64,000 bases of DNA from Candidatus Enterousia sp. (GCA_045648665.1 JAZROL010000006.1:179-64178); one strand, 5' to 3'. Shown: positions 31,931-49,066, counted from the stretch's first letter. Numbers and translations: made by a program. The notes: a model not told the origin generated them from the sequence alone.

Positions 31931-31957
31931 AAAAAACCACCCTTGCGGGTGGTTTTT
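31931..31957 (+). terminator. Intrinsic terminator after cassette 2
   Basis: aaaaaaCCACCC-ttgc-GGGTGGttttt. Confidence 0.8.
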
Positions 31958-32274
31958 CCGGATGCCCTGAAAGGAAGGAAAGGAGAAAAAGAAATGGGCA
32001 TCCTAAACTTTTGTTTGGGCCCAAAGTCCAGAGGAGAGAGAATGTAGGAGGGAGTCTGAAAACTCTGGGCCCGATATTGTCAAACGATTTTCATCCTTTG
32101 ACGAATCGAAATGTAATACATAAAAATACATTTGTCAAGTATTTTGTCAAAAAAATTTTTTGGTCTAATTTTTAGATAGGAATACAAACTGATAAATACA
32201 GGTTGCGATGACTAGGAATTTCCACTAATATTAGAATGTTGAATTGGAAAACCAAATACAACAAGGAGAAAAAG

Positions 32275-32552: not shown

Positions 32553-32990
32553 ATGGTTTATTGTGAAACTATGTTGGAAAACGTAAAAATTTATGCATCG
32601 GATGAATATTGGAAACACATTTTGGCCGATTTAGGCGCTACGATTGTTGATAATGCAAATATAGCAGATGTTGTATTTGATGATATTAAGGTCGCGGCGC
32701 CAATAGCGGCAACTGATTTATGTGGCTTGATTTTTTCAAATATAAATAATGATGAAATTATTCGCCAGATATTTGGTGCGGATGTTATTTTGCCGACTTT
32801 ACAACATAAAATAGTAGTTTTGCTTTATAAAAATCCTGATATTTCAATGTGTGATTTAAAAAAGGCGATAGGTGTATTGCCTGGTGTTTCTTCACATACT
32901 GTTGAAACGGCTGTGTATCAATTACGTAAAAAATATGGACACGATTTCATTGTAAATACGGATGGGAAATATAAAATTGGACGCTTATAA
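32553..32990 (+). CDS. Hypothetical protein with C-terminal OmpR/PhoB-type winged-helix domain (no receiver domain)
   Basis: LPTLQHKIVVLLYKNPDISMCDLKKAIG...SHTVETAVYQLRKKYGHDFIVNTDGKYKIG resembles Trans_reg_C. Confidence 0.5.
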   Translation: MVYCETMLENVKIYASDEYWKHILADLGATIVDNANIADVVFDDIKVAAPIAATDLCGLIFSNINNDEIIRQIFGADVILPTLQHKIVVLLYKNPDISMCDLKKAIGVLPGVSSHTVETAVYQLRKKYGHDFIVNTDGKYKIGRL

Positions 32991-33642
32991 ATTAATTTCT
33001 TTGGATAAAATTCCCAGCACCCAAGATTGGGCGCATGATTTAGTTGCGACAGGCAAAGCATCAAATAAAACAGTTGTTGTAGCAACTTCGCAAACCGCAG
33101 GACGCGGAAGATATAGACGTACCTGGGTTTCGCATACTGGAAATTTATATGCAAGTTTTATTTATAAAATGCCGGAAAGAAATCCGCGATTGGCTTACGC
33201 TGTTGGTGTGGCAATTGCAGAAACTTTAATTTATTTTGGAATTGAACCAAAGATAAAGTGGCCTAATGATATCTTGGTTGATGGGAAAAAAATTTGCGGT
33301 GTGTTGATTGAATATGCTCAAAGTTTCGTTATCGTTGGAATTGGAATAAATATAAAAACTTGCCCAAATGTAAAAGAATATAAGACTACGAAAGTTAACA
33401 AGTATGTAAATGTGTCTGTGACCGATGTGTTGAATATTTTGATGAAGAAATTAGATAAATGGAAAAATGCTGATTTTAATATTGTGCGTAATCGATGGAT
33501 GGATTTGGCTGCTGCTGTTAATGAGACAATTACATATCGTGGAAATACTATGAAATTAATAGGTCTAAACGAAGATGGTGCGCTGGTTTTACGGCATGAT
33601 ACTAAATATCTGTTGATTTACGGTGATGAAATAACAATTTAA
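32962..33642 (+). CDS. birA: Biotin-[acetyl-CoA-carboxylase] ligase, group I (no N-terminal HTH)
   Basis: GRGRYRRTWVS (GRGRxGRxW), KWPNDILV, CGVLIE. 226 aa. Confidence 0.88.
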   Translation: MGNIKLDAYKLISLDKIPSTQDWAHDLVATGKASNKTVVVATSQTAGRGRYRRTWVSHTGNLYASFIYKMPERNPRLAYAVGVAIAETLIYFGIEPKIKWPNDILVDGKKICGVLIEYAQSFVIVGIGINIKTCPNVKEYKTTKVNKYVNVSVTDVLNILMKKLDKWKNADFNIVRNRWMDLAAAVNETITYRGNTMKLIGLNEDGALVLRHDTKYLLIYGDEITI

Positions 33643-33646
33643 TGTC

Positions 33647-33675
33647 TTGACTTTTATGTCATTTTGTGATATTAT
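33647..33675 (+). promoter_or_regulatory. Near-consensus sigma70 promoter (TTGACT-17-TATTAT) directly after the birA stop
   Basis: ttgacttttatgtcattttgtgatattat read directly. Confidence 0.5.
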
Positions 33676-33698
33676 GTAAGGCATCAAGAGTGAAGATT

Positions 33699-33768
33699 CT
33701 GTCCATCAAGCGGGACAGTTTTTTTATTCTGTTAATTCAATCCGCGCATTCATTGTGCGGTTTTTTTA
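33699..33768 (+). terminator. Two tandem intrinsic terminators between the promoter and the first gene of the phage-like cluster
   Basis: CTGTCC-atcaagcg-GGACAG + ttttttt (33699-33727). CCGCGCA-ttcat-TGTGCGG + ttttttt (33742-33768). Confidence 0.7.
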
Positions 33769-33785
33769 TTAACCAAGGTGTGACC

Positions 33786-34196
33786 ATGCAATTATATTTG
33801 ATTAACAATCCAGATGATACACAATCTGTATCATATAAATTGGCACGCATAATTTATGCGGAAACTTTGGCTTCATCTTTATCTTCTGTGGAAGCAATGG
33901 CTTCTATGATTTATAACATTCATACAAAATATAATAGGTCATTTGAAGATATTGCCATGGATAAAAATATTTTTGATGTGCTGAATGAAAATTCTTCGCG
34001 TCATGAATATATGAAAGTTATGGCCGATGATAAAAAATTCCAAATGTGTTTGCGTGTTGTTAAAACAATGATGCATGGAAATTTACGCGACTATGTTTTT
34101 GGTGCAACATCATTTCATCATACTGATGTTATTCCTGATTGGGCAATGTCTCGTGGTTATATCGCAGAAATAGGCGATATATTATTTTATCTTTAA
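33786..34196 (+). CDS. SleB-type cell wall hydrolase (endolysin-like)
   Basis: LARIIYAE...AMASMIYN...GATSFHHTDVIPDWA...IGDILFY matches the Hydrolase_2 pattern. Start set after the terminators (MQLYLINN). Confidence 0.6.
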   Translation: MQLYLINNPDDTQSVSYKLARIIYAETLASSLSSVEAMASMIYNIHTKYNRSFEDIAMDKNIFDVLNENSSRHEYMKVMADDKKFQMCLRVVKTMMHGNLRDYVFGATSFHHTDVIPDWAMSRGYIAEIGDILFYL

Positions 34197-34209: not shown

Positions 34210-34428
34210 ATGAACAAAATAATAAATGGCGGATATTTACAAGGCCGCAAAACATATGTTATATCTGGTGTTGGTATAATATCTGCAATCGGTGCATATT
34301 TAATCGGCGAAGAAGATATTTTTACAATGCTGCAAACTGTGTTTATGTTAGGTGGAATTTATTTTTTGAAACAAGAATCTTTAACCAAAGGAAAATCAAA
34401 TGGAAAAAGTTCCAGAAAAATTTCTTGA
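34210..34428 (+). CDS. Small two-TM protein (holin-like)
   Basis: 72 aa. Hydrophobic helices YVISGVGIISAIGAYLIG and MLQTVFMLGGIYFL. Basic C-terminus. Next to the hydrolase. Confidence 0.4.
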   Translation: MNKIINGGYLQGRKTYVISGVGIISAIGAYLIGEEDIFTMLQTVFMLGGIYFLKQESLTKGKSNGKSSRKIS

Positions 34429-35056
34429 TGACAAAGGCGAATTAAATACTGCTGCGTTGGTGAAATCATATTGTGAATTAGAAAAGAAAATGGGAAATAT
34501 GATTGCTGTCCCGACAGAAGATAGTGATGATGCGACAAAACAAAAATTCAATCATGCAATTGGTGTGCCTGATAATGCGGCTGAATATCCAATAAACGAA
34601 TTGTTTGATGACGAATCGGTTCGTGAAAAATTTCATGAAATTGGATTAACTTCAAAACAAGTAGAAAAAATTTATGACATTGCAGCAGAATTTTTACAAC
34701 CAACATTAAAAAATTTATTTGAATTACAAACACAAACAAATTCAATAAATGAATTAAAAAAATTTTTTGGTTCAACCGATAAAATGAATGAAGCATTACA
34801 AGAAATAAATGCGTTTGGGGAACGTTTTTTACCAAAAGATGCGTTTGATGAATTATGCGCTACACCCCAGGGAATACAAGGCATATACAAGATGATGCAA
34901 TCAATGGAGCCGGAAGTTTTAACAAATAAAAATGTGTCTGAAAATTTAACCGATGATGATTTGCGTAACATGATGAAAGATCCAAAATATTGGCGCGATC
35001 AAGATCCAGAATATGTTCGTAAAATAGAAAATGGTTTCAAAAAATTATATTCATAA
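34400..35056 (+). CDS. Phage scaffolding (capsid assembly) protein
   Basis: N-terminal VPEKFLDDKGELNTAALVKSYCELEKKMG is typical of podovirus scaffold proteins. Helical and acidic. Upstream of the capsid gene. Confidence 0.55.
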   Translation: MEKVPEKFLDDKGELNTAALVKSYCELEKKMGNMIAVPTEDSDDATKQKFNHAIGVPDNAAEYPINELFDDESVREKFHEIGLTSKQVEKIYDIAAEFLQPTLKNLFELQTQTNSINELKKFFGSTDKMNEALQEINAFGERFLPKDAFDELCATPQGIQGIYKMMQSMEPEVLTNKNVSENLTDDDLRNMMKDPKYWRDQDPEYVRKIENGFKKLYS

Positions 35057-35704: not shown

Positions 35705-36529
35705 ATGTCTTTATCTGTAGATCAAGTGTTTATTAAACAATTTGAAGCAGATGTTCATTTAGCTTATCAGCAAATGGGCACAAAATTACGTTCAACAATT
35801 CGCAGTAAATCTGGGGTTGTTGGTTCTTCTACAACTTTCCAAAAAGTTGGCAAAGGTATTGCTAGCACTAAATCTCGTCATGGTATTGTTCCAGTGATGA
35901 ATTTGAATCACACACCTGTTGAATGTACTTTGCAAGATTATTATGCAGGCGATTGGGTTGATGCTTTGGATGAATTGAAAACAAACGTTGATGAACGTCG
36001 CGTTGTTGCTTCCGCAGGCGCTTATGCTTTGGGTCGCAAAACAGATGAATTGATTATCAACGCTATGAGCAATGCAACACAATATGTTGGTGATTATTCA
36101 ACCGGTTTGACAAAAGCGATGATAATGGGTGCTTTGGAAATACTTAATGCAAACGATGTGCCAGATGATGGTCGCAGATTTGCAGTTGTTGGTGTTCATC
36201 AATGGAACGAATTGTTGAAATTAGATGAATTCGTTTCTGCTGACTATGTTGGTTCTTCGACCCCATTGGTTGACGGTTGTGAATCAAGAAAATGGTTGGG
36301 CATCAACTGGATTTTATGCAATTCGTTGCCTTTGGCCAGCACAGATGATCGTGATTGCTTCATTTATCATGCATCCAGCATTGGACATGCTTGTGGCCAA
36401 GAAGTCAAGACAGATATTACATGGCATGGGGAACGTGCTGCGCACTTTATCAGCAACAGCATGTCTCAGGGAGCTGTGTTAATTGATGCAGAAGGTATTG
36501 TTCGTCTTAAATGCGATGATGATGCCTAG
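35705..36529 (+). CDS. Major capsid protein, T7 gp10-like (HK97 fold)
   Basis: FIKQFEADVHLAYQQ...RSKSGVVGSSTTFQKVGKG...HTPVECTLQDYYAGDWVDALDE...GRKTDELIINAM parallels the T7 gp10 N-terminal pattern. 274 aa. Confidence 0.7.
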   Translation: MSLSVDQVFIKQFEADVHLAYQQMGTKLRSTIRSKSGVVGSSTTFQKVGKGIASTKSRHGIVPVMNLNHTPVECTLQDYYAGDWVDALDELKTNVDERRVVASAGAYALGRKTDELIINAMSNATQYVGDYSTGLTKAMIMGALEILNANDVPDDGRRFAVVGVHQWNELLKLDEFVSADYVGSSTPLVDGCESRKWLGINWILCNSLPLASTDDRDCFIYHASSIGHACGQEVKTDITWHGERAAHFISNSMSQGAVLIDAEGIVRLKCDDDA

Positions 36530-36560: not shown

Positions 36561-36791
36561 ATGGCATTTCAAAATAAAAATTTGTCTGTAATTGCATATG
36601 CAAATGGCTTCACTTTGTGGCACTATAAAGAAAATGCAACAATCGCGAATATAACCGCATCTGGATATTTTGCCAGTGTAAAATCTTTGATGAATACTGG
36701 TGATATCATTTTGATTAACGGTTCAAACGGAACAACAATGAAAGTTGTGACTGTTGCAGAAGGTACAGTGACCGTCGGTGCATTGTCTTAA
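36561..36791 (+). CDS. Small phage-cluster protein (76 aa), function unknown
   Basis: ORF with RBS (aaaaggaaa), directly after the capsid gene and followed by a terminator. Confidence 0.45.
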   Translation: MAFQNKNLSVIAYANGFTLWHYKENATIANITASGYFASVKSLMNTGDIILINGSNGTTMKVVTVAEGTVTVGALS

Positions 36792-36858: not shown

Positions 36859-37377
36859 ATGTTTACAAAAATAGATTTATGTTCAATGGCTTTATTAAAA
36901 TTAGGCGAAAAACCAATTCAATCTTTGCGGGAAGATTCTGCAACTGCGCAATTAGCAAGAACTTTGTTTGATTCAGTTGTGAATACATTATTGTCTGTAT
37001 TTCCATGGTGTTTTGCAACGCAATTAATCAGCATTAATAAAAACAGTGATGGGGATTGTTTAATTCCATCTAATGTTTTACGCATAATAAAATGTGATGG
37101 TAAAATTGTTGGAAATAAAATTATTACACCAGCAGAAAAAATAGATTTAGTAGCGGTTGTTCAAGTAAATCCAGAAGATTTTCCGGATTATTTTGCATCG
37201 CTTGTAGCGACTAAATTGGCTTTGGAATTTTGTATTCCATTAACAGGCGACACAAATGTATTCAAGATGTTATTCTCGTTGTATGAAGCAGAATATCAAA
37301 CAGCTAAATTTATTGACAGTACAATATCAAACCAAACAAATATTGATAATTTTTCTTTGATAAATTCAAGATTTTAA
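36859..37377 (+). CDS. Podovirus adaptor / tail tubular protein A-like
   Basis: The N-terminal pattern IDLCSMALLKLGEKPIQSLREDSATAQLARTLFDSVVNTLLSVFPWCFA is typical of this family. Position after the capsid gene. Confidence 0.5.
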   Translation: MFTKIDLCSMALLKLGEKPIQSLREDSATAQLARTLFDSVVNTLLSVFPWCFATQLISINKNSDGDCLIPSNVLRIIKCDGKIVGNKIITPAEKIDLVAVVQVNPEDFPDYFASLVATKLALEFCIPLTGDTNVFKMLFSLYEAEYQTAKFIDSTISNQTNIDNFSLINSRF

Positions 37378-37392: not shown

Positions 37393-39105
37393 ATGGGAAA
37401 TTTCCTTAAAACACAAAATAATTTTTCTTGTGGTGAAATATCACCCGATTTTTATGCCACGAATAATGGTAAAGGTTTATCAAAACTGGAAAATATGGAC
37501 GTTTTGGAATCTGGGGGATTGACACGCAGGCCTGGGTTAAAGAAAATCGCTAATGTCGTAAATGGTGCGATTATAGTGCCGTTCCCAATTTCAGAATCTG
37601 AAAAATATTTACTTATTATATATAATATAACGACGGAAATATATCATAATGATGAAAAAATCGCGACAATTAATTCACCATGGCACACTGAAGATTTGAG
37701 CAAATTACAATATGCACAAAGATTCAATCAAATATTTTTTGTGCATCCTGATTACAGCCCTTGTGTGTTAACCAAAACAGGAGATGTGTTCAGTATAAAT
37801 AATTTTGTTTTCGCTTCAAATGAAATAGGTGAAGCAAAAGTTCCTTTTACACGATTTGATGATACAAAAGATATTTCAATCACTATCACATCCAGTACCA
37901 TAGATTATAATCATGTCACGTTTACAACAAGTGCTGACTTTTGGACTGAAAATAGTTTAGGTTTGCGTTTTTATGCTATCGGCAAACAATGGGTTATTAC
38001 AGAAGTGCAAAGTGCACGTATAGCGATTGCAAGCACAAACGGTGATTTTTCATATCCTCAAAACGCTGTGACAGATTGGCAAGAATCGGTGTTTAGTAAT
38101 AAACGCGGTTGGCCAATAAGTGTTTCTTTTCATCAAAACAGATTAATTTTTGGTGGAACAAAATCTATGCCAAATTGTTTGTGGATGTCGAAAGTTGGAG
38201 ATTATCACAATTTTGATACCGGAACCGGATTAGATGATGAAGCAATATATGTGACTTTGTTATCTGCACAACATCATCAAATTTGCACAGTTGTCAGTAG
38301 TGATAAATTGCAAGTGTTAACATCTGTTGGGGAGTGGGCTATTTCTAATTCCCCGTTAACACCATCAAACGTTAATGTAAAACAACATACATCTGTGGGT
38401 AGTGTAGCAACCAGGTATTTACCACCACAACAAATAGAAGGCAGAACTGTATTTATAGCTGAATCTGGTAAAGATATAAGAGAATTAGATTTAGATGTTT
38501 TAGGCGAAAGTTATAACGCTACAGATTTATGCGTGTTTGCTAAACATCTTATGAATACACCAATCAGTGTAGCATATAATCAAACAACACACCAACTATT
38601 TGTAGTGATGAATGATGGTTATATGAGTGTATTGAATAAATATTCAAATACAGATATTGCTGCGTGGGGAAAATATTTAACTGATGGTGATTTTAAATAT
38701 GTTTGTGTGTTGGACAATTATACCTATGTAATTGTATCAAGAAATGAAACAACGACATTAGAAAAATTTGATGCAAGTTGTTTAAAAGATGCAGATAACT
38801 ATAATTTTTCATATACAATTTCTGCTTTCCCGATGATAGTCAATGGTTATTGTCCAAAGAAAATACGTGTGCGTAAAATATCAGTGCGCGTCATAAATAC
38901 TAAAACAATATTTGTGAATAGCTATCGATTGGAAATACCTAATGATGTATATGCAGATGGTAATTCTGGATACAAGGGTGATTTATCAATGAATTTCTTG
39001 GGTACACAAAATGATACAACACAACCTATGTGGACCATCGCAAGTGATGAACAATTACCCGCAACAATTTTATCTGTGACAACAGATGGTTGGTATTCAA
39101 TATAA
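37393..39105 (+). CDS. Podovirus nozzle / tail tubular protein B-like (570 aa)
   Basis: N-terminal NFSCGEISPDFYA...GLSKLENMDVLESGGLTRRPG pattern. Size and position after the adaptor gene fit. Confidence 0.5.
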   Translation: MGNFLKTQNNFSCGEISPDFYATNNGKGLSKLENMDVLESGGLTRRPGLKKIANVVNGAIIVPFPISESEKYLLIIYNITTEIYHNDEKIATINSPWHTEDLSKLQYAQRFNQIFFVHPDYSPCVLTKTGDVFSINNFVFASNEIGEAKVPFTRFDDTKDISITITSSTIDYNHVTFTTSADFWTENSLGLRFYAIGKQWVITEVQSARIAIASTNGDFSYPQNAVTDWQESVFSNKRGWPISVSFHQNRLIFGGTKSMPNCLWMSKVGDYHNFDTGTGLDDEAIYVTLLSAQHHQICTVVSSDKLQVLTSVGEWAISNSPLTPSNVNVKQHTSVGSVATRYLPPQQIEGRTVFIAESGKDIRELDLDVLGESYNATDLCVFAKHLMNTPISVAYNQTTHQLFVVMNDGYMSVLNKYSNTDIAAWGKYLTDGDFKYVCVLDNYTYVIVSRNETTTLEKFDASCLKDADNYNFSYTISAFPMIVNGYCPKKIRVRKISVRVINTKTIFVNSYRLEIPNDVYADGNSGYKGDLSMNFLGTQNDTTQPMWTIASDEQLPATILSVTTDGWYSI

Positions 39106-39129: not shown

Positions 39130-39477
39130 ATGGGACAATTAGTATCAGATGTAACAAAAGTTTTAGATTATAAAGAATCTAAAAAACAAGCGGAAAACCA
39201 ACGTCAAAAAATTTTGGCGCAAATGGCCGCAGACGAAGCCAATAAAACTAATTTAATAAAAAAAGCATTGGCAACACAGCGTGCAAAATATGGCGCATCA
39301 GGAAATTCTGGGAAAGGGCTTTCTGAAAAAGCGGTTTTGAAACGTTTGCGTGACGAAACAGCAAGTCCATATGATGAAAAAAATAAACTTAATATTGAAA
39401 AATTGAACAGTATAAAAACTAAAAAACCAAATTTAGTAAAAAATTGGCTGTCCCAGATAGATAAAATCGCTGGATAA
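39130..39477 (+). CDS. Basic coiled-coil phage-cluster protein (115 aa)
   Basis: ORF with RBS. Lys/Gln-rich helix. No motif. Confidence 0.45.
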   Translation: MGQLVSDVTKVLDYKESKKQAENQRQKILAQMAADEANKTNLIKKALATQRAKYGASGNSGKGLSEKAVLKRLRDETASPYDEKNKLNIEKLNSIKTKKPNLVKNWLSQIDKIAG

Positions 39478-39492: not shown

Positions 39493-40029
39493 ATGTATAA
39501 AACTTCTTATACTGGCAATGGAACAGATACAGAATTTGTATTTGCGTTCCCTTTCTTTCAAAATGCTGATGTTAAAGTCGCATTAGATAATGTTTTATTA
39601 GATGCAGACAGTTATGATGTTAATCCAAATGATAACTTCAATGGCGGTTTAGTTGTGTTTTCTGTTGCGCCAGCTGATGGTGTTCAAATAGATATTTTTC
39701 GTCAAATATCTTTGAATAGAGTGATTGATTATCAACCAACTTCTAAGATTGACCCAGAAGATTTGAATGCAGATTTTAATTTTCTGTTGGCTGCCTTTGA
39801 AGATTTGCGCAAGGTTGATGTAGATTTAGCAGAATGGGCAAATGTACACGATAACGTTTTAAGCAAAATAGATTACACTATAAATTTAATTGAAGATAAA
39901 TTGACAGGTGGCGGAGTATTGGGGTTGTATAACAATTTATTAAGCGTGCTGAACGATTTAATAAATGATTATGGTTCTGTCGCGGAAGAAGCATCTAATG
40001 ACGATAATGACGATTACGGCAGCATTTAA
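39493..40029 (+). CDS. Tail-fibre N-terminal (T7 gp17 adaptor-binding) domain protein, lacking a distal fibre
   Basis: YTGNGTDTEFVFAFPFFQNADVKVALDN...VVFSVAPADGVQIDIFRQISLNRVIDYQ...DLNADFNFLLAAFEDL matches the T7 fibre N-domain pattern. Only 178 aa. Confidence 0.6.
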   Translation: MYKTSYTGNGTDTEFVFAFPFFQNADVKVALDNVLLDADSYDVNPNDNFNGGLVVFSVAPADGVQIDIFRQISLNRVIDYQPTSKIDPEDLNADFNFLLAAFEDLRKVDVDLAEWANVHDNVLSKIDYTINLIEDKLTGGGVLGLYNNLLSVLNDLINDYGSVAEEASNDDNDDYGSI

Positions 40030-40603
40030 TTTTTTAGATGCCTGGAATAACTTGCTTGGCTTAAAGACACCGGAACACCATAAAAAAATAATGGAGTTTT
40101 TGGTAAATGTATTAAACGAAGAACCGCATCGAGGATTACTGAATGCTTTTCGTCATTCCGGCAAATCTACTGTTGTTGGGATTTTTGCAGCATGTGTGTT
40201 ATATCATCGGCCGGAAACCAGAATTTTAATATTATCTGCTGAATCTGGTTTGGCATCTAGAATGGTTTCGCATATAAAAAATATACTGGAAAACCATCCT
40301 TTCTGTGATGATATTTTGCCTGATGTTAAAAAAGAGTGGGGCGCACATAAAATAACAATTAAACGCCCTATTGGGATTAGAGAGCCTTCGGTAATATGTC
40401 AGGGAATTTCTGGGAATATTACAGGTATGCGATCTGATTTAATATTGTGCGATGACGTAGAGGTTCCAAATACCTGTAATACGCAACAAAAAAGAACTAA
40501 TTTACGTGAAAGATTGCGCGAACTCGATTTTATACTTTCGCCAAATGGCACTATGATTTACATAGGAACGCCACATACAAAGGATACTATATATCAAATT
40601 TAA
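39998..40603 (+). CDS. Terminase large subunit, N-terminal ATPase piece
   Basis: Walker A RHSGKST, Walker B LILCDDVE, IYIGTPH coupling motif. Ends YQI* at the junction with the antisense module. Start uncertain (39998 or 40007). Confidence 0.7.
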   Translation: MTIMTITAAFNFLDAWNNLLGLKTPEHHKKIMEFLVNVLNEEPHRGLLNAFRHSGKSTVVGIFAACVLYHRPETRILILSAESGLASRMVSHIKNILENHPFCDDILPDVKKEWGAHKITIKRPIGIREPSVICQGISGNITGMRSDLILCDDVEVPNTCNTQQKRTNLRERLRELDFILSPNGTMIYIGTPHTKDTIYQI

Positions 40604-41241
40604 GATAATGAAGATATAAATGTACGCAATTTGGCCAATAATTCGTTCCCTTGTTCGCCGAACATAGGTAAATATGTTTCAAATTCAGGCATGTCTGCTT
40701 GGATTTGAGCGCGATTCCGTTCGGTCAGTGTTTCGGAAACCAATTCTTGGGCGGAATCCCAAATTCTAAATGCTTTGTCCGTACGAATCACACGATCCCA
40801 TTTTGATAAAGTTTCTTTATCGGTAGATAACGCAGATTTAACATCTTGAAGCCAATCTTCGCCGAATTTTTGTACGCAAGGTAATGATTTTATTTTTTCA
40901 AGTCCTTCTGGAGTTGTTTCAAAATTATCCAAAGCAGATTTGATTTCTTCAATTTCTGGTTTGGTCAATGTTTTTGATAAATCTTTGTCATACATTAAAC
41001 CGCCGTATGGCAATAAATCATTATCTATGGAATCCATAGGTGTTTTGCCGCTGCGTAAATTGTTTATATGTGCAATTAATTTCTTACCTGTTGGCAGATT
41101 TTCGAGTTCTGCGATTACTTGTTCGTCATTAGATTCATCAATAAAAACTTGGTTCACAGCTAACCAACCACCGTTTATAACGTGTTCTTGACGATAAAGA
41201 TTCAAAAGACGTTGCGCGATTATGTGTGCTTGTTGTTGCAT
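40600..41241 (-). CDS. Hypothetical protein (213 aa), last gene of the antisense module
   Basis: ORF only. Its stop codon overlaps the TerL-N stop codon by 2 nt. Confidence 0.5.
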   Translation of the reverse strand: MQQQAHIIAQRLLNLYRQEHVINGGWLAVNQVFIDESNDEQVIAELENLPTGKKLIAHINNLRSGKTPMDSIDNDLLPYGGLMYDKDLSKTLTKPEIEEIKSALDNFETTPEGLEKIKSLPCVQKFGEDWLQDVKSALSTDKETLSKWDRVIRTDKAFRIWDSAQELVSETLTERNRAQIQADMPEFETYLPMFGEQGNELLAKLRTFISSLS

Positions 41242-41272
41242 TGTGTTCCCTCCCTTATGAAACGAATAAATT

Positions 41273-42280
41273 CTATTTCATAACAATCATAACAACTTTG
41301 TGCATGGTTTGTGCATGTATTTTTTCATCAGGATTAGATACATGACCATATTTTTTACCATGTGTATCTTGACGTGTGACCGCAATTTGACCATCAACCA
41401 CATCTGTGTCAGTCAATGCTGAAAAATCAGTGTCAATAAACATGGCCAAATCACCGACGTCAGGTGTGGAATTGGCATCTACAAAAACATACGAGTTTTC
41501 AGGAACAAAACCACCCAAACGTTTAGAATTAGGAACAACTGCGTATATGCCTTTGCGTCCTTCTAATTCAACTGGTGCAACAATCATTACTTCATCAGAT
41601 TTGTGTAATTTGATTGTTTTTCCGTTTGGATTGCCGAAAACAGGAACCAATTTCTTACGAGCGTTATCATATAATTGTGCGCCGTATAACCCGCCCTGTA
41701 CATCCAATCCAGACATAGGATTGCCAGGTTCTAAAACAGATTTGACGCGTTCTTTGACTTTATTAATTTGTTTTGTTAATTCGCCGGCATTATACATTTT
41801 TGCGATTTCTTCAAATAATTGATCCGCGGTATAGCCAAATGTTTTTGCTAATACATCAATTTCGTCTTCGTATACTTCGCGTTGACCGACCTCGATTTTA
41901 TGGTACACAGACAAAGTCATATGTGATGATTTTGCGGCCTCTGCGATTGTTTTGCCAGAATTTTGACGAATCTTGCGCAATCCGGAACCAAAAACTTTCA
42001 AACCACTGTCTTCATTATCTGTTAAACGACGTTTTATTTCACTTTGCCATTGGTTGGCAACTGAATCAGATTCGTGAATAAAGATATCAGATAACTTGCA
42101 ACCAAGAATAGAACACACGTTTAATAACTGTTTTTGGTTAAGACGACGAACGCCTTTTTCAATCTTTGATACAGCAGACAAAGACAAATTTGCACGACGT
42201 GCCAATTCAGTCATTTTCATGCCTTTCGATGCACGAATGTTTCGAATGTTATTTGGAAAAATTATTTCTTCTTGGGCCAT
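41273..42280 (-). CDS. Double XRE-type HTH regulator with S24/LexA-like C-terminal beta-domain (catalytic Ser-Lys not evident)
   Basis: Two HTH_3 units (IRNIRASKGMKMTELARRANLSLSAVSKIEKG; LRKIRQNSGKTIAEAAKSSHMTLSVYHKIEVG). The C-terminal 130 aa resemble the CI/LexA fold but have no GDSM-type serine. Confidence 0.65.
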   Translation of the reverse strand: MAQEEIIFPNNIRNIRASKGMKMTELARRANLSLSAVSKIEKGVRRLNQKQLLNVCSILGCKLSDIFIHESDSVANQWQSEIKRRLTDNEDSGLKVFGSGLRKIRQNSGKTIAEAAKSSHMTLSVYHKIEVGQREVYEDEIDVLAKTFGYTADQLFEEIAKMYNAGELTKQINKVKERVKSVLEPGNPMSGLDVQGGLYGAQLYDNARKKLVPVFGNPNGKTIKLHKSDEVMIVAPVELEGRKGIYAVVPNSKRLGGFVPENSYVFVDANSTPDVGDLAMFIDTDFSALTDTDVVDGQIAVTRQDTHGKKYGHVSNPDEKIHAQTMHKVVMIVMK

Positions 42281-42347
42281 GTGTATCCTCCTTGGGATTT
42301 GTTGACAAAATATTATACAATTTTAATTATTTTATCAAGAAAAATAA

Positions 42348-43898
42348 TTAAATTATGTCGTCAGGAATATCATTTATGTCAACTGTCGCCGGATTATCCG
42401 CTTTGGATAGTTGCGCATAACCACCGTCAACATCAATATCATCAGGTATTTGTTGGTTTCCAAAAGAATTAAGATTGTCAAATAAGTAGTATTCACCAGT
42501 GAAACTTAAACGAACTGTTTCTGGTTTACCATGACGATTCTTTGCAATGATAATTTCTGCTTTATTGCGAGATTGTTCCAATCGGTTTTGCCAATGTTGG
42601 GTCGCGGTCTCAGATGCAGTTCCAGACAAACGATTCGTTGGTGAACGGTCTTTAAGATAGTATTCTTCACGATATGTAAACATAACAATATCCGCGTCTT
42701 GTTCAATAGAGCCAGATTCACGCAAATCAGATAATATAGGTCTTTTGTCATCACGTTGTTCGACGCTTCGTGATAATTGAGACAAAGCAATCACAGGAAC
42801 ATCTAATTCCTTGGCCAATATTTTCAAACCGCGGGTGATTTCTGATAATTCTTGAACTCGATTGTCATTGTGTTTGCCACCGGGGGAGGTCATTAACTGT
42901 AAATAGTCGATAACAATCAAGGCGACACCATTAAATTGGCGTGCAATACGACGAGCGCGTGTCTTCATCATGGCAACAGACATATTTGCGGCATCATCTA
43001 TGACCAAAGGTACCTTTGACAATGCGCTGGAATACTGAGACATTTTCATGAAATCTTCGTCTGATAAATTACCTTCACGCATGTGCGATGCAGGTATTTT
43101 TGATTGCGAAGATAACACGCGTTGCGCCAGTTGTTGATTTGACATTTCAAGACTGAAAAATATAACGGCGCCCTTGTATTGTGCATTTGCGCGACCTTTG
43201 AATATAGCATCGGCAGCATTAAAAGCGATATTCATAGCCAATGTTGTTTTACCCATGCCTGGTCGTCCGGCGATAATTATTAAATCAGAATGATGCAGAC
43301 CGCTGATTGATTTATCAATATCATCAAGACCCGTGGTCAGGCCTGACAATTTACCATCCGCTTTGTACGCGATTTCTGCTTCTTGTAAAGCACCCTTTAA
43401 AGCGTCAGCCAAAGAAACCATGCTGCGTTCAGATTGACCGGTAGATGCCAAATTAAACAATTTTTGTTCGGTTGCTTCTATTTGCCTGTCCACCGGGTTA
43501 TCAATGTCTTCGGTATAAGCAGCATCGATAATGCTTTGTCCCAAACCGATTAAATCACGACGTCGGGCATTATCAAAAACTATACGACCATAATGTTCAA
43601 CGTTTACAACCGTTGCGCCAGCAGATGATAATTTAGACAAATATTCAACGCCACCAACACTATCCAAAACACCCTGTTGTTCAAGATATGTTTTCGCGGT
43701 GATGATGTCAAAAGGTATTCCAACTGCAAATTGACGTAGGGCCAATTTATAAATCTCTTTGTGCGCAGGATGTGAAAAATGTTCAGGTAGCAAAAATTCA
43801 GATACTGTTTCCAAAGCGCGGTTGTTCATTAAAACCGCGGCAAGAACAGCTTGTTCTGCCTCTAAATTCGTAGGTAAAGTTTTCGGAGTAAAGTCCAT
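42348..43898 (-). CDS. dnaB: Replicative DNA helicase DnaB
   Basis: N-terminal LEAEQAVLAAVL, Walker A GRPGMGKTT, SLEMS, IDYLQLM, ALSQLSR. Extra acidic C-terminal tail (~40 aa). Confidence 0.9.
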   Translation of the reverse strand: MDFTPKTLPTNLEAEQAVLAAVLMNNRALETVSEFLLPEHFSHPAHKEIYKLALRQFAVGIPFDIITAKTYLEQQGVLDSVGGVEYLSKLSSAGATVVNVEHYGRIVFDNARRRDLIGLGQSIIDAAYTEDIDNPVDRQIEATEQKLFNLASTGQSERSMVSLADALKGALQEAEIAYKADGKLSGLTTGLDDIDKSISGLHHSDLIIIAGRPGMGKTTLAMNIAFNAADAIFKGRANAQYKGAVIFFSLEMSNQQLAQRVLSSQSKIPASHMREGNLSDEDFMKMSQYSSALSKVPLVIDDAANMSVAMMKTRARRIARQFNGVALIVIDYLQLMTSPGGKHNDNRVQELSEITRGLKILAKELDVPVIALSQLSRSVEQRDDKRPILSDLRESGSIEQDADIVMFTYREEYYLKDRSPTNRLSGTASETATQHWQNRLEQSRNKAEIIIAKNRHGKPETVRLSFTGEYYLFDNLNSFGNQQIPDDIDVDGGYAQLSKADNPATVDINDIPDDII

Positions 43899-44745
43899 GT
43901 CTATTAGATTAAACGAAAATTTTAATAATTCAATACCTTTTTTACAAGGTTATAAACAATTAAAAATTCCAATAATGGATAATGCCGGAAATTCAGCATG
44001 GCCAGAGATGTTCCCGCCAGAAAAAATACGTGAAATGGAACATATTGTTGGCCCCAGACATTTTTCAGCGCAAATGATGTTGGAATATGTCCCAGAAGAA
44101 CGAATAGTGCTGGATCCGGGGGCTTTGCATTTTTATACGGATAATTTTGATGTTTCGCATTGTCAAATTGGTAATCATATAATCACTGGATACACAATCT
44201 ACTGGGATCCGTCTTCTGGTCGAACAGTAGCAGATGGCAGTGTTTGCGTTTTGGTGTATAAAGATGATAAATCAAAAACAGCCTTTATTCATGACATAGT
44301 TTATATGGCCACAGATGATGATGATTTACATCCTTTGGCGACCCAATGTGGATATGTATTATCTTTTATGCAAAAACACAATGTTAATCGTATAGGCATA
44401 GAAATAAATGGTATAGGAAATGCTTTGCCCGAAATTATGCGTCAAATTGCTAATAACCGTAATATGTCTGTTAACATAATACAAATTGCAAATCATATAA
44501 AAAAAGAAACAAGAATTTTGAACGCTGTAGAGCCAATGCTTAACACAGGACGACTTTACGTGCATGAAACAATAAAACAAACAATGTTGTTGTCTGAAAT
44601 GTTAGCGTGGACACCACTTGGTTCAAAAGAACACGATGACGGATTGGATGCGGTTGCAGGTGCTTTGTCTATGCAACCAATTCCAATGCGACCATCACAA
44701 AATCGAAATGTGTTAATCAAAGCAAACACAGAATTCAAAATATAA
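43897..44745 (+). CDS. Terminase large subunit, C-terminal piece (ATPase lid plus RNase H-like nuclease)
   Basis: WPEMF...FSAQMMLEYVP, then YWDPSSG...DGSV and EHDDGLDA acidic motifs. Own ATG with GGAG 8 nt upstream. The ATG overlaps the dnaB ATG (CATG). Confidence 0.7.
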   Translation: MSIRLNENFNNSIPFLQGYKQLKIPIMDNAGNSAWPEMFPPEKIREMEHIVGPRHFSAQMMLEYVPEERIVLDPGALHFYTDNFDVSHCQIGNHIITGYTIYWDPSSGRTVADGSVCVLVYKDDKSKTAFIHDIVYMATDDDDLHPLATQCGYVLSFMQKHNVNRIGIEINGIGNALPEIMRQIANNRNMSVNIIQIANHIKKETRILNAVEPMLNTGRLYVHETIKQTMLLSEMLAWTPLGSKEHDDGLDAVAGALSMQPIPMRPSQNRNVLIKANTEFKI

Positions 44746-44760
44746 ACAAAAGGAAAATAA

Positions 44761-45984
44761 ATGCAAAATAACATAATGCAACTATATAAACGTGCGTTAA
44801 ACGAACGTGAAATTTGGTTAAACCGTTGGAAAACAGCGATGCGATATACGAATCCAACTGATGATATAGATGCTGCAACTTTATTTGATGCAACTGCATC
44901 TGATGCGGTGGATAATTTGGCTGCATCAATGTATTCTTTGTTGACACCACCTGAATCTTTGTGGATAAATCTGGTGCGTGAAAGCGATTTATCTCCAGAT
45001 GCAGAAAATGCAACAGCTGTATTGCGCGCGCATTTGAACGATTCAAATTTTTATACAACAATTCATCAATGCTATACTGATTTAGTCGTTTTAGGAACAG
45101 CATGTTTGTTTATGGCTGAAAATCCAATAGGCGCAGATTCCGCTTTCTCGTTTACTGCAATTCCAATGACAGATATAGCGTTGTTGCCGGGGGCAGTTTT
45201 TCACACTACATCAATGCCTGCGTGCGATGTCATGGAAAAATATCCAACTTTTGTTTTTCCTGATAATTTGAAAAACACAATTAAATCAAATCCTCAAACA
45301 CCAATTAGATTAGTGCAATCATTAATAGGGCAAGATTTTACAGCCTGGGTCGATGTTGGCGGAGATATTGAAAACAATATTGTTGCGCGTGGAACATTTG
45401 AAACAAACCCATATATAATTTTCCGTTGGTCTTTGTTAAGTGGTGAAATTTATGGGCGCAGTCCTGTTTTGCGTGCGTTGCCAGATATAAAAACGGCAAA
45501 CAAAGTTGTTGAATTGGTTTTGAAAAACGCGACTATCGCGGTCAGTGGTATTTGGCAGGCAGACGATGATGGAGTGATAAATTTATCAAACATAAATTTA
45601 ACTCCAGGTGCAATTATACCAAAAGCAGTGGGCAGTTCTGGATTAACACCATTATCCAGTGGAGCTGATTTCGACGTTTCACAAATAGTATTGCGTGATT
45701 TGCGCGATAGAATCAGACATACGCTTTTAGCGGATAGACTTGGTTTGTTGTCTGATAAAGAAATGACAGCAACTGAAATATTGGCGCGCAATAGTGATAT
45801 GGTAAGAATTTTAGGTGCTACATATGGTCGTTTATTGCATGAATTCATTAAACCTTTGTGTGAACGAGGATTGCAGATATTATCACGTCGTGGTTTGATT
45901 GAACCAATTTCTCTGCACAGTGATGCGGAATTGAAATATATTGCGCCGATTGCCCAAATGGCACGTGAAGAAATGTCGATATAA
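44761..45984 (+). CDS. Portal (head-to-tail connector), T7 gp8-like
   Basis: N-terminal RWKTAMRYTNP...DATASDAVDNLAASMYSLLTPPESLWINL matches the connector-family pattern. 407 aa. Directly after TerL. Confidence 0.6.
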   Translation: MQNNIMQLYKRALNEREIWLNRWKTAMRYTNPTDDIDAATLFDATASDAVDNLAASMYSLLTPPESLWINLVRESDLSPDAENATAVLRAHLNDSNFYTTIHQCYTDLVVLGTACLFMAENPIGADSAFSFTAIPMTDIALLPGAVFHTTSMPACDVMEKYPTFVFPDNLKNTIKSNPQTPIRLVQSLIGQDFTAWVDVGGDIENNIVARGTFETNPYIIFRWSLLSGEIYGRSPVLRALPDIKTANKVVELVLKNATIAVSGIWQADDDGVINLSNINLTPGAIIPKAVGSSGLTPLSSGADFDVSQIVLRDLRDRIRHTLLADRLGLLSDKEMTATEILARNSDMVRILGATYGRLLHEFIKPLCERGLQILSRRGLIEPISLHSDAELKYIAPIAQMAREEMSI

Positions 45985-45995
45985 GGATTTATAGT

Positions 45996-46196
45996 ATGAC
46001 TGATATTGAAAAAGAATATGCGCGTACTTTTGCAAGTGCTTCTGGAAAACAAGTATTGGCCCATTTGCGTTCTATAACAATAGAACGCATTTTGGGGCAA
46101 AATGTATCAAATGAAGAATTACGCTGGTGGGCGGCGCAGAATGCCTTGGTCCATCAAATAGAAAATTTAATAAAAAGGGGGAATAATCCAACATAA
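45996..46196 (+). CDS. Bbp19-like small phage protein
   Basis: FASASGKQVLAHLRSITIER...ELRWWAAQNALVHQIENLI resembles the Bbp19 (Bordetella phage BPP-1) domain pattern. Confidence 0.45.
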   Translation: MTDIEKEYARTFASASGKQVLAHLRSITIERILGQNVSNEELRWWAAQNALVHQIENLIKRGNNPT

Positions 46197-46237
46197 ATTC
46201 ATAACATAAACATTTACTGCGGATTATTATATAACAA

Positions 46238-46498
46238 ATGCAAAAACAAAATAATTTTATGATTTTTTTAGATGTTTTGCGGGATAGTTGGTTTCTTATT
46301 GCGTTCGTCGCCGGCATTATTTATTGGGTCGCACGCCAGGATTCTTCACTGTCTGAACTAGAACGTCAAAATCAACGTATAACATCACTGGAAAACAGAA
46401 CTACTATTTTAGAATCAGGAATAGGCCAATTACAATTAAAAATAGACGGGATAAAGGAAGATGTCACTTTGATAAAAAGTGCAGTTATAAAAAACTAG
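46238..46498 (+). CDS. Membrane-anchored coiled-coil protein (86 aa)
   Basis: One TM (WFLIAFVAGIIYWV) followed by a coiled coil. Last gene of the cluster. Confidence 0.45.
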   Translation: MQKQNNFMIFLDVLRDSWFLIAFVAGIIYWVARQDSSLSELERQNQRITSLENRTTILESGIGQLQLKIDGIKEDVTLIKSAVIKN

Positions 46499-46848
46499 AT
46501 GGCATTTTTTGCCCAATAAATTTTGTTTTTACAAACAACAATAACATCAAATCTGGCATCGCCCATCCAATGTTTATTTATAAGAAAAGTTTCTGCCGCC
46601 CGGCGCAGACGTGCGGATTGTGCCGGTGTAATCGCGGCCCATGCAGCGCCGACGCTTTGCCTGTTTTTTACTTCTACAAAAACAATAGTATTTTTGTGTT
46701 TTGCGATAATGTCTATTTCGGCGCGGTTTGTGTTTTTACCGGTTATGTACCTGGATTTTAAAATGCTGTATCCATGAAAACGCAAATACCATCGTGCCAG
46801 AAATTCTGCCCAAAGCCCAACTGTATAAGATGTTTTATTAAAAAGCAT
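46495..46848 (-). CDS. yraN: YraN-family (UPF0102) endonuclease
   Basis: GLWAEFLARWYLRFHGYSIL...EIDIIAKHKNTIVFVEVKNR is the typical YraN pattern. Start moved to MLFNKTS. Confidence 0.8.
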   Translation of the reverse strand: MLFNKTSYTVGLWAEFLARWYLRFHGYSILKSRYITGKNTNRAEIDIIAKHKNTIVFVEVKNRQSVGAAWAAITPAQSARLRRAAETFLINKHWMGDARFDVIVVCKNKIYWAKNAI

Positions 46849-47644
46849 ATGGTTTTGCCTGGAAATTTTCACGCGCAGATATAATATTTTCTGCGGCATC
46901 ATTTGCTTTTAATCCATTGTCGGTCAAAATCAATTGACCATAATATGCTTGCATCATAGGTTCGTGTGCATTTTCTGCAGAAATCCATTTGTCTTCATCT
47001 GAATTTGGTTTGCCGTATTTATCTATTACGCCCTGCCAAAAAGCCAATAACTTTTTTTCTCTTTGATTTTCGAAACGCGTATCAGCACCATCTAAATCAT
47101 TTGCATCATTTGTGTAAACTATCTTCCATACAAGATTATCTGTCGCATTGCTGGTAAAATAAATGTCCAATTTTTCACCCGTAAAAGGCCGTTCCAGATG
47201 AATTTCGGACACGTAGAGCAATCCGCGATTACGTGCTGTTGAATAAATACAATTATTAAGTGCCTCTGGAACAAAAACATTGTTTTGACGGCATTCGTAA
47301 TCCAGGTTATATTTCCATTCTTTGTCTATTGTGTAAACAACGCTGTCTTTTTGACGTGGGGCATACAAACCGCCATTATCAAAAAACAAATTATTTATTT
47401 CATCATAATTCATTCCCAACATAACGCCGGCTATATCAAATTGTTTTACATTTAAAACATCTGCATCATCATTTAGATATACATAATCAAGGTTTACATC
47501 AGTATCTTCACTTTCGACCGTTGCAAAATTATTAAATGAAAAATCATATTCATCTGCATAAACATTTATTGTGTTTAAATTAAACACAAAACATAAAATC
47601 ATAAAAGATAAAAATTTCTTTAACATATTACTTTTTCCCATCAT
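46838..47644 (-). CDS. Secreted hypothetical protein (268 aa)
   Basis: Signal peptide MLKKFLSFMILCFVFNLNTINVYA. No motif. Confidence 0.55.
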   Translation of the reverse strand: MMGKSNMLKKFLSFMILCFVFNLNTINVYADEYDFSFNNFATVESEDTDVNLDYVYLNDDADVLNVKQFDIAGVMLGMNYDEINNLFFDNGGLYAPRQKDSVVYTIDKEWKYNLDYECRQNNVFVPEALNNCIYSTARNRGLLYVSEIHLERPFTGEKLDIYFTSNATDNLVWKIVYTNDANDLDGADTRFENQREKKLLAFWQGVIDKYGKPNSDEDKWISAENAHEPMMQAYYGQLILTDNGLKANDAAENIISARENFQAKPYAF

Positions 47645-48344
47645 CTATATCCGATACTACGAATTTAAACATATTTACAGGATCCAACCCAGATTCCAAA
47701 TATTTTTGAATATTGAAATATTGGATATCTTTTTTGTCTGGTTCTGTATATATGCCCACAGGTATTTTGTCCCAAATCCCTGGTTTGAAAATAGCCTGGA
47801 TATAAATTATACCACTTTCAGTTTTTGGTTCAACCGCCATAAAATTGGATTCGTCCCATGTCAAAGTATAATATTTCACAGAATAAAAAACAGGACGTGG
47901 AATAACGGAATTATAATAATCGTATCCCTTTGGCAAATCTATTGCTGCGATACCGTCATCCGGCACCATCACCAAGCGAAACTTACCCTGTGCAGACATT
48001 GTTGCTATTTCTGGGGCCATATTTTTTTTCCAATATTTATATGCTGCTTCATCAGACATTGTTTCCAGAACGGAATTATTGGTTAAATTTTTTATTCCAG
48101 GAATAACTTTGAAATATTCTGCAACATATTTTTTTATCAGTTTATTTCTTAAATCAACCGCGGACATATCATTTATATTTTGCAAAGCACCAACGCGCTG
48201 ATTTTTTAAATAATTCATTTGAAAAATATAACTTCTTACTGACATATTTTCATTTGCACGATAAATAAAAGCGGCACAAATCACCATGAAAAATGTCACG
48301 ACCAACAACAATATACCAATAAAGAAATGTTTTATTTTGGTCAT
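47628..48344 (-). CDS. Membrane-anchored periplasmic protein (238 aa), possible VirB8/NTF2-like fold
   Basis: Single N-terminal TM (FFIGILLLVVTFFMVICAAFIY). Fold guess is from the layout only. Confidence 0.4.
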   Translation of the reverse strand: MTKIKHFFIGILLLVVTFFMVICAAFIYRANENMSVRSYIFQMNYLKNQRVGALQNINDMSAVDLRNKLIKKYVAEYFKVIPGIKNLTNNSVLETMSDEAAYKYWKKNMAPEIATMSAQGKFRLVMVPDDGIAAIDLPKGYDYYNSVIPRPVFYSVKYYTLTWDESNFMAVEPKTESGIIYIQAIFKPGIWDKIPVGIYTEPDKKDIQYFNIQKYLESGLDPVNMFKFVVSDIDDGKK

Positions 48345-49066
48345 TGACTTATCCTGTATGAATTAAATGTTTCTATGTAATATCCAAGTGTTGTTGGATA
48401 TATGCCTTGTTTGCGGGATACTTTTACAAAAGCCAACACATCAAATTGTCCGTTAACGGTTGAATTGATTGTTGCGTATATTTGCCAAGTGCTGCCATTT
48501 TGTGTGACAGAATGCGGGACTTCTTCCATTTTTACGATTGTCCAACGTTCGGCTTTTTCAGCAATTCTAGCGCGATATTCCGGTAATACTTTTGTTTTAA
48601 ATTCTTCAAATACATCATCATCGGCTTTACAAGATATTGCACATTTTATGTTATCGGGAATAAATTGTTCGTCTGCACCACATTCATCAACAGAGCATTC
48701 ACGCCAACGCAATTCGTTTGTTGATTGGTTGTTTGAGATTGTAAACCAATCCGTCATAAAATCATGAACCAGATTTTTCTGAATAACTTGATATTGTTCA
48801 ACTTTGTCTTTTGTGCGTTTTCCAGGATAGGCGACAACAGTCCAACTGTTAGTGAAAGGATTAATCGATATTAAAAAGGGATAATTCTTTTTAAGATGCA
48901 CACCTAACAAAACAAAACCGCATGCACAAAATATCAAAAAGAAAACAACACTTATCCAAACAGAAACACGGCGCGACAATGCTATGGATTTGCCCGCCGG
49001 AAAAGAAGGTATGTCAAAATTGTTTGGATAATCCAATGCTACGCCCCCCTGTTGTCTGTTTGTCAA
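48341..49066 (-). CDS. Membrane-anchored periplasmic protein (241 aa), possible VirB8/DotI-like fold
   Basis: TTG start. Cytoplasmic N-terminus, one TM (VWISVVFFLIFCACGFVLLGV), periplasmic domain with the LVHDFMTDWFTIS pattern. Confidence 0.4.
   Translation of the reverse strand: MTNRQQGGVALDYPNNFDIPSFPAGKSIALSRRVSVWISVVFFLIFCACGFVLLGVHLKKNYPFLISINPFTNSWTVVAYPGKRTKDKVEQYQVIQKNLVHDFMTDWFTISNNQSTNELRWRECSVDECGADEQFIPDNIKCAISCKADDDVFEEFKTKVLPEYRARIAEKAERWTIVKMEEVPHSVTQNGSTWQIYATINSTVNGQFDVLAFVKVSRKQGIYPTTLGYYIETFNSYRISQ

Follow-up and report, generated by a model that had tools for sequence, protein, structure and literature searches.

What becomes of a phage large terminase (TerL) when its gene lies in two pieces, with a helicase operon on the opposite strand between them? 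The question is raised by a locus in a stretch of 64,000 nucleotides (nt) from Candidatus Enterousia sp. (GCA_045648665.1 JAZROL010000006.1:179-64178), here called the window, whose source group is an uncultured Candidatus Enterousia-like alphaproteobacterium of the order Rs-D84 with genomes smaller than 1 Mb. A preliminary description of the window had read the locus as a terL gene split at the boundary of its ATPase and nuclease by a 3.3 kb antisense dnaB module, and had proposed either that the terminase works as a two-polypeptide enzyme or that terL is restored by excision of the insert. From the comparison of related loci described below, we think it probable that the window carries a domesticated T7-like element resembling gene transfer agents (GTAs), in which the terminase would be made as two separately translated proteins and the split would have preceded the insertions.

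Results

The five open reading frames (ORFs) of the preliminary description, with their coordinates, strands and TerL motifs, are all present as claimed, in the ORF translations and in searches of Pfam, PHROG and NCBIfam. The first half of the terminase, TerL-N (201 amino acids (aa), plus strand, 39998-40603, with a longer ORF from 39965), is the ATPase core; it carries a Walker A motif (RHSGKST), a Walker B motif with the catalytic glutamate (LILCDDVE) and a C-motif (IGTPHT), and ends in IGTPHTKDTIYQI before its stop codon. The second half, TerL-C (282 aa, plus strand, 43897-44745), holds the last ATPase β-strand, the lid helices and the RNase H-like nuclease, as judged from PF22530, PF17289, PHROG_38 and an AlphaFold2 (AF2) model, and contains the motifs WPEMF, FSAQMMLEY, YWDPSSG and HDDGLDA, with the conserved nuclease signatures WDPS, E.NG.G and DDG.DA. 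Between them, on the minus strand, lie dnaB (516 aa, 42348-43898), a double helix-turn-helix (HTH) regulator (335 aa, 41273-42280) and a gene for a 213-aa protein (40600-41241), the last of the dnaB operon. The two halves hold between them the ASCE (additional strand, conserved glutamate) ATPase motifs and the C-terminal RNase H-like nuclease, with its acidic residues, of a T7-type TerL; the single polypeptide of that type is lacking.

Nothing has been lost at the break. The NCBIfam model termin_lrg_T7 (NF033889) recognises TerL-N with 222 bits (cut-off 150) over profile positions 4-189 of 500, and TerL-C continues to position 500; the PHROG_38 TerL profile is divided in the same manner, into positions 287-458 for TerL-N and 468-712 for TerL-C. 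TerL-N also matches residues 32-211 of PDB 8dgc, and the Pfam families PF22530 and PF17289 are found in TerL-C from residue ~101. An intact relative of 498 aa (protein P0141) aligns through residues 9-196 with 40031-40594 and through residues 193-498 with 43882-44742; it maps whole onto the two halves, and the large missing segment of a dead pseudogene, which the preliminary description had allowed for, is therefore not found. On its own, TerL-C had no match in PDB by phmmer, a profile search gave only a weak match to 8dgc, and an exact-sequence look-up found no record. No second terL lies within the window.

The position of the break does differ from that first proposed. Intact relatives read IGTPHTxxTIY, then about ten variable residues, then PFLxGFxxLxIPI...WPE.F...SQMML; in the window, TerL-N runs on for only three residues past TIY, and TerL-C begins 13 residues before PFL. 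The PFLxGY motif occupies TerL-C residues 14-19 and needs the ATG at 43897 or an upstream start close by. With the two halves joined as a single fused chain and an alignment of 57 sequences, AF2 gave a predicted local distance difference test score (pLDDT) of 93.6 and a predicted template modelling score (pTM) of 0.88, compared with a pLDDT of 36 when no alignment was supplied. The lowest-confidence internal stretch, residues ~201-210 (mean pLDDT 67), is precisely at the join, and a β-strand (221-225) and helices (242-260) lie ahead of the nuclease, which starts at about residue 279. Foldseek matched the model to the full-length TerLs of PhiV-1 (E=7e-27), T4 (gp17), Sf6 (gp2) and D6E, and to terminase nuclease domains. 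ATPase-only structures (P74-26 and the T4 gp17 N-domain) align over ~280-300 columns, which places the ATPase domain at about residues 1-275, with the break at 201 inside it. In the model, then, the break is a flexible, disordered surface loop inside the ATPase domain, after the C-motif strand and ~75-100 residues before the nuclease, and not the ATPase/nuclease boundary of the preliminary description, which was nevertheless right that the C-terminal half continues with the ATPase lid.

This divided form is widespread among relatives. The protein collection holds 825 TerL-N homologues, the best 120 of which are all 198-212 aa long and 80-100% identical, and come from metagenome-assembled genomes (MAGs) named 'Alphaproteobacteria bacterium' or Candidatus Enterousia, on contigs of at most 367 kb. 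At least 544 stretches of species-representative genomes encode a relative; the counts given next refer to the best 80 of these, and the scan returned close relatives only (70-85% identity). Sixty-eight of the 80 have the full architecture in one shared order, birA-hydrolase-...-fibre-TerL-N-[213-aa gene, HTH gene and dnaB, reversed]-TerL-C-portal, eleven are cut by contig ends, and one (L076) differs; intact terL occurs in more distant relatives. The IMG/VR database contributes about 70 fragments of this cluster (L093-L162, ~4-16 kb), 53 of them complete across the split. Recurrence of the arrangement in more than 120 independent assemblies argues that it is no assembly artefact, thereby answering the concern over misassembly, and with well over a hundred related genomes sharing it, the layout seems to be functional and not the product of damage.

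Selection on these genes was estimated as the ratio of nonsynonymous to synonymous substitution rates (dN/dS) by the pairwise NG86 method, for pairs with dS ≤ 1.5. Values range from 0.07 to 0.31 over 15 cluster and insert genes, with 0.18 for the host gene birA, and are rough since dS is near saturation (~1.2-1.4). Portal is lowest in the cluster (0.07), followed by capsid and dnaB (0.09 each), TerL-N (0.10), the HTH regulator (0.12), TerL-C (0.18) and the 213-aa protein (0.21). By this measure all cluster genes measured are under purifying selection and none looks to be decaying. Every one of the 126 reconstructed sequences retains Walker A, Walker B, the C-motif and the first two nuclease motifs; 125 of them retain the last nuclease motif as well. 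One MAG, JAZTWT01 (Candidatus Enterousia sp.), has two contigs bearing the cluster (L051 and L068), with TerL-N 74% and 72% identical to that of the window, either as a mixed bin or as two copies.

More distant relatives bear on the order of events. Searched against 1.84 billion representative proteins, TerL-C retrieved intact terminases, 450-515 aa in length and 27-35% identical to it, together with many proteins of 270-300 aa at 32-51% identity that start within a few residues of the PFLxGF motif. Among the latter, P0137 was rejected, being an intact protein truncated by the end of its contig; those others whose gene neighbourhood could be seen are genuine split forms. What lies between the halves varies by lineage. 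At locus L173 it is a TGA, 5 nt and an ATG in a different frame, with the weakest Shine-Dalgarno (SD)-like sequence of the lineages examined; a programmed frameshift was ruled out here, as the A-run comes after the stop codon. In loci L090, L091, L092 and L168 the halves are 270-550 bp apart, and the space holds one small-RNA gene or two, with a separate promoter-like site and terminator-like hairpin for every such gene; L006 has such small RNAs plus a same-strand methyltransferase gene, its portal gene lying ~10 kb away, past murJ and ftsZ. In L009 (51% identity) dnaB is divergent and begins 19 bp before TerL-C, on a contig that ends short of TerL-N. In L062, which has the dnaB operon, the left spacer measures 92 bp and contains a hairpin terminator, and the right intergenic region measures 270 bp, such that the halves are separate transcription units there. 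Finally, in L076 (5366-12875 of the termite-gut MAG WRJH01000001.1) TerL-N is followed by the 213-aa gene, the HTH gene and then the host genes normally found beyond yraN; dnaB, TerL-C, portal and the two small genes that follow portal are absent from the locus, and the terminase halves may thus be unlinked in that genome.

In the lineages examined, TerL-N ends at a stop codon of its own, and TerL-C has a separate start with an SD-like sequence. Intact relatives L165 and L171 have the order portal-scaffold-capsid-tube-fibre-TerL, and L174 carries an intact terL in a compact cluster of ~9.5 kb, flanked by host genes on a 113-kb contig, from which it follows that a reduced chromosomal cluster probably predates the split. 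A crude neighbour-joining tree unites the split forms and nests the dnaB type among them. The likeliest course of events, judging from these sequences, is that the terL split is older than the dnaB insertion and that the dnaB module is one of several later arrivals between two cistrons. The dnaB module does lie between the halves, as first described, but would not be what divided them.

Both junctions of the insert were confirmed in the sequence. On the left, the TerL-N stop codon TAA (40601-40603, plus strand) overlaps the stop codon of the 213-aa gene on the minus strand (TTA on the plus strand, 40600-40602). This junction is variable: a 4-nt overlap occurs in 33 loci and a gap of 0-8 nt in about 33, and the rest have larger overlaps or gaps. 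On the right, the starts of dnaB (minus strand) and TerL-C (plus strand) share the tetranucleotide CATG (43896-43899), kept in 121 of the 125 loci holding both genes; about one third of these loci also have a second in-frame ATG 5-6 codons downstream, which as the real start would leave a gap of 13-19 bp. The SD sequence of TerL-C, GGAG (43885-43888, plus strand), lies within dnaB codons 4-5 and is near-invariant across 48 aligned loci.

Codons 4-15 of TerL-C (43906-43941) show almost no synonymous variation: their third-position entropy is 0.16, where the gene as a whole averages 1.15, and no other stretch of 12 codons in six genes is as low. This shows an additional constraint on the DNA or RNA there. 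Within them is a candidate dnaB promoter on the minus strand, composed of TTGAAT (43933-43928), 16 nt and TAATCT (43911-43906), the last ending 8 nt before the dnaB ATG. From its resemblance to the consensus, the constrained stretch is probably the dnaB promoter, giving a leaderless or near-leaderless dnaB mRNA. A scan for promoters and terminators gave numbers near the shuffled expectation (29 promoter-like sites versus 21.7 ± 3.8; 3 terminator-like sites versus 4.3), and its best minus-strand site upstream of dnaB (TTGTAA-17-TAAAAT) was dropped, not being conserved in relatives. As for the TerL-C mRNA, no clear footprint of synonymous-site conservation was found for an antisense promoter inside dnaB, the HTH gene or the 213-aa gene; the terminator after TerL-N in L062 makes read-through from TerL-N an unlikely source as a general rule.

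The inserted dnaB is a replicative DNA helicase gene of host type. Its product passes the bacterial equivalog models of NCBIfam (NF006606, 605 against a cut-off of 540; TIGR00665, 508 against 385), fails the phage_DnaB exception model (417 against 498), and has the domains PF00772 and PF03796 of a bacterial DnaB helicase. It is the one dnaB copy in the window and, given genomes smaller than 1 Mb, is very probably the sole replicative helicase of the cell. The HTH regulator has two XRE-type domains (Pfam HTH_3, two matched stretches) and a C-terminal domain without assignment, PDB profile matches reaching the HTH part only, and the 213-aa protein had no match in Pfam, PHROG, NCBIfam or a PDB profile search. 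Synonymous variation in dnaB is lowest at codons 478-489 (42431-42464), ~150-180 bp upstream of the start of the HTH gene, of which this stretch may be an internal promoter.

The terminase halves belong to a cluster of ~12.8 kb of T7-like head, tail and packaging genes (Pfam, PHROG, NCBIfam), between the host gene birA (32962-33642; NCBIfam TIGR00121) and the host genes yraN (46495-46902, minus strand) and, further on, bamA. The preliminary description did not recognise this setting. All of the remaining cluster genes are on the plus strand. A cell-wall hydrolase gene (Hydrolase_2; 33666-34196; PF07486) opens the phage-derived cluster right after birA, a position kept in relatives. It is followed by genes for a T7-type scaffold (capsid assembly) protein (34400-35056; PF05396, E=1.7e-11; dN/dS 0.23), the major capsid protein (35705-36529; PF19821 Phage_capsid_2, E=4e-73) and a small conserved protein of 76 aa (36561-36791; phrog_18004), syntenic across all loci. 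Next come a protein resembling tail tubular protein A or an adaptor (36859-37377; dN/dS 0.20), whose match to PF17212 Tube is weak at 19.6 bits, below the curated cut-off of 22.3, and a 570-aa protein resembling tail tubular protein B or a nozzle (37393-39105; dN/dS 0.20), assigned from position and size; PF25675 Phage_nozzle is carried by its homologues in L174 and, faintly, L090. A conserved 115-aa protein (39130-39477; dN/dS 0.22) is syntenic across all loci and without a family match. The short tail-fibre gene (39493-40029) encodes a T7 fibre N-terminal domain only (PF03906, 22 bits, below the curated cut-off of 25.2), and its 3' end overlaps the start of TerL-N, where TerL-N codons 2-15 vary little at synonymous sites, as would suit dual coding with the fibre gene. 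Beyond TerL-C are the portal gene (44761-45984; PF12236, E=2e-80) and, recognised by synteny, two genes for small conserved proteins of 66 and 86 aa (45996-46498), the second phrog_736, which end the cluster; in L092 and L174 the gene after portal is PF25181 Phage_Bbp19.

Several further features of these loci were seen. Three genes on the minus strand between yraN and bamA (268, 238 and 241 aa; window 46838-49066) are conserved without a family match and are syntenic in all relatives, L076 included. At 6578-7768, the L173 cluster encodes a protein whose Mtd_N domain has the fold of the tropism determinant from Bordetella phage BPP-1, which hints at a different receptor-binding module. In distant lineages ftsZ adjoins portal or lies near the cluster (L006 18758-20876, L092 16336-20213, L091 19160-20870), which suggests that the linkage between parts of the element and cell-division genes is old and conserved.

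A small-RNA candidate is located in the window at 31930-32150 (minus strand), with a sigma-70-like promoter, two hairpins and a terminator. Its hairpin loops, CUCCCUCCUACAUUCUCUCUCCUC and UUCUCCUUUCCUUCCUUUC, are invariant, CU-rich and anti-Shine-Dalgarno-like, and its stems show compensatory changes; there is no match to an Rfam family. Copies elsewhere are found in L090 (9725-9950), L091 (9815-9970), L092 (9475-9620 and 9820-9960) and L006 (8585-9030). In Enterousia-type genomes it stands ~0.9 kb upstream of birA, and in the other lineages between TerL-N and TerL-C.

Discussion

We propose the following history for the locus. It would have begun as a compact chromosomal cluster with an intact terL, in which a simple stop-and-restart then made two adjacent cistrons. 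Differing DNA would have lodged between these cistrons lineage by lineage, in Enterousia the host dnaB-HTH-213-aa operon in antisense orientation, and compaction to zero spacer would have followed there. Such compaction would account for a TerL-C ribosome-binding site in dnaB codons and a constrained element in the first 16 codons of TerL-C. At the protein level, TerL-N would supply the ATPase core and TerL-C the last strand of the ATPase sheet, the lid and the nuclease; most likely, the two would reassemble non-covalently into the packaging motor, a strand of the C-terminal half completing the sheet of the N-terminal half. Of the alternatives in the preliminary description, the two-polypeptide terminase is thus the one supported, by deep conservation, purifying selection, intact motifs, a separate stop and start, and the 5-nt junction of L173.

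Several points weigh against this history and mechanism. A terminase ATPase divided inside its core fold is, to our knowledge, without precedent, and the AF2 model is that of a single fused chain. Neither a small terminase nor T7 internal core proteins were recognised with Pfam or PHROG. The tree places the intact P0159 near the base of the split clade and the presumed split P0170 outside it, and the dN/dS values carry the roughness noted above. The promoter reading is weakened by L062, which keeps similar 5' codons in TerL-C though its dnaB starts 270 bp away. Some of these points also favour a different view, that the halves are no longer a packaging motor: the cluster may be kept for some other purpose, such as a particle or compartment that packages no DNA, or each half may have taken on a job of its own, for instance as a stand-alone nuclease. 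The unrecognised small terminase and core proteins, the missing precedent, and L076, which appears to lack dnaB, TerL-C and portal beside TerL-N, would all suit it. However, portal is the most constrained gene of the cluster, both TerL halves are constrained, the ATPase and nuclease catalytic motifs are kept together, and an ATPase strand and lid retained in the C-terminal half would make little sense without the N-terminal half. We therefore regard a loss of the motor function as rather unlikely.

That the locus is an ordinary, possibly defective T7-like prophage, its split being damage from decay, is very unlikely. It would agree with the listing of about 70 such stretches as viral contigs in IMG/VR. 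In 68 species-level genomes, however, the cluster occupies one and the same place in the chromosome, between host genes, with its gene order unchanged, and all measured genes are under purifying selection. Within the cluster and ~10 kb around it, no integrase, polymerase or primase was found, although dnaB and the HTH regulator do sit inside, and no lysogeny genes were recognised in the cluster. It has moreover been retained in the genomes of Enterousia, a member of the order Rs-D84, which measure 0.75-1.0 Mb (PMC12306168). In our view, the IMG/VR contigs with a host-type dnaB are cases in which virus-prediction pipelines mistake a domesticated element for a provirus.

The other proposal of the preliminary description was that excision of the insert restores terL. 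Such a rebuilding of the gene by DNA rearrangement in part of the cells, whether the 3.3 kb block were excised in the manner of a skin-type element or inverted, now seems extremely improbable. What speaks for it is gene geometry only, an interrupting block between the halves. The repeat search returned chance-level matches and no direct or inverted repeats at the junctions, and domain searches (Pfam, PHROG, NCBIfam) found no recombinase in the insert or in or near the cluster, both as the preliminary description had itself observed. The halves have their own stop and their own start with SD sequence; joining their coding parts would need a precise in-frame deletion. The left junction varies by indels between species. 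The insert carries a host-type dnaB, the intervening DNA is quite different in other lineages, and L173 is split without any insert.

Joining after transcription or translation, by a group I or II intron acting in cis or trans or by a split intein, can hardly be credited: Rfam finds no such intron and no known RNA at 39900-44800 (E ≤ 0.1), none in the spacers of L006 and L090-L092 at the gathering threshold, and at that threshold nothing beyond tRNAs elsewhere in the loci of the other lineages; an intein has no room, the N-terminal half ending 3-8 residues past TIY and the C-terminal half starting at most 13 before PFLxGY; and a start codon with an SD-like sequence, weakest in L173, is present in the lineages examined.

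The two-chain terminase of a domesticated element may be carried one step further. The packaging ATPase of a podovirus-type GTA would then be obligately two-chain, with the sole replicative helicase operon nested head-to-head, the dnaB promoter in TerL-C codons, and the translation and transcription signals of TerL-C in dnaB codons. Transcription of TerL-C and portal and that of dnaB would hinder one another, and this could act as a built-in switch that ties particle production to replication shut-off in a terminal subpopulation. This extended scheme is speculative, and we hold it to be improbable as a whole.

Among known systems, the cluster most invites comparison with GTAs (RcGTA, BaGTA, CcGTA and FpGTA). 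Like them, it is a chromosomally fixed, phage-derived cluster of head, tail and packaging genes, vertically inherited under purifying selection, as seen in the birA...yraN/bamA synteny of 68 species-level genomes and in dN/dS values of 0.07-0.31; in some lineages its genes, again as in GTAs, are interspersed with those of the host. GTAs lack replication and integration genes; in and around the cluster no integrase, polymerase or primase was found, but a host-type dnaB and an HTH regulator lie inside it. It may package host DNA. It differs in having structural genes that are T7-like rather than HK97- or siphovirus-like, Rs-D84 hosts with genomes smaller than 1 Mb and a two-piece terminase. A podovirus-like GTA, called the first of its kind, is FpGTA of Faecalibacterium, published in 2026 (PMC12946183). 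TerLs of the T7 family (gp19; NF033889; PDB 8dgc, 4bij) have the same fold and the same order of motifs (Walker A, Walker B, C-motif, lid, nuclease), but form one polypeptide of 586 aa, whereas the Enterousia form consists of two, broken in the loop after the C-motif strand and 483 aa long when joined.

Divided terminase genes are known in other settings. In herpesviruses, an intron that holds UL16 and UL17 in antisense orientation divides the terminase gene UL15 into two exons; the UL15 mRNA is spliced into one ORF, by a kind of splicing that bacteria do not have. The likeness lies in a divided terminase ATPase gene with opposite-strand genes between its parts; in Enterousia, by contrast, two proteins are expected. 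A skin-type element, as in sigK/skin of B. subtilis, likewise interrupts a gene with a block of other genes, but the Enterousia locus has no recombinase or att repeats, its insert contains an essential-type gene, and its halves are complete cistrons. Phage terL genes interrupted by group I introns, homing endonucleases or inteins also have their coding sequence in separate genomic pieces; these are rejoined by RNA or protein splicing, whereas the Enterousia pieces have their own translation signals and can be separate transcription units. In the literature searched, the only split terL cases are the intron-split genes of Jug jumbo phages, restored by splicing (PMC12880540); none of it describes a terL split of the present type, or links Rs-D84 or Enterousia with phage-like clusters.

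A terminase encoded by two cistrons, within a domesticated T7-like element of gut alphaproteobacteria with very small genomes, therefore appears to be undescribed. If the two chains do form an active motor, it would be a natural viral packaging ATPase split within its core fold, and would bear on the folding and assembly of TerL and on the cut sites that it tolerates. The zero-spacer, head-to-head junction of dnaB and TerL-C would offer a natural case of regulatory signals placed inside the coding sequence of a divergent neighbour. For databases, it matters that many of these host loci are listed as viral contigs in IMG/VR. For the organisms, the finding suggests that a T7-like domesticated element not described before is kept under selection by hundreds of alphaproteobacterial species of the gut and rumen. 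Their genomes are among the smallest of free-living type, and the retention of ~13 kb of phage genes in less than 1 Mb argues for a real benefit.

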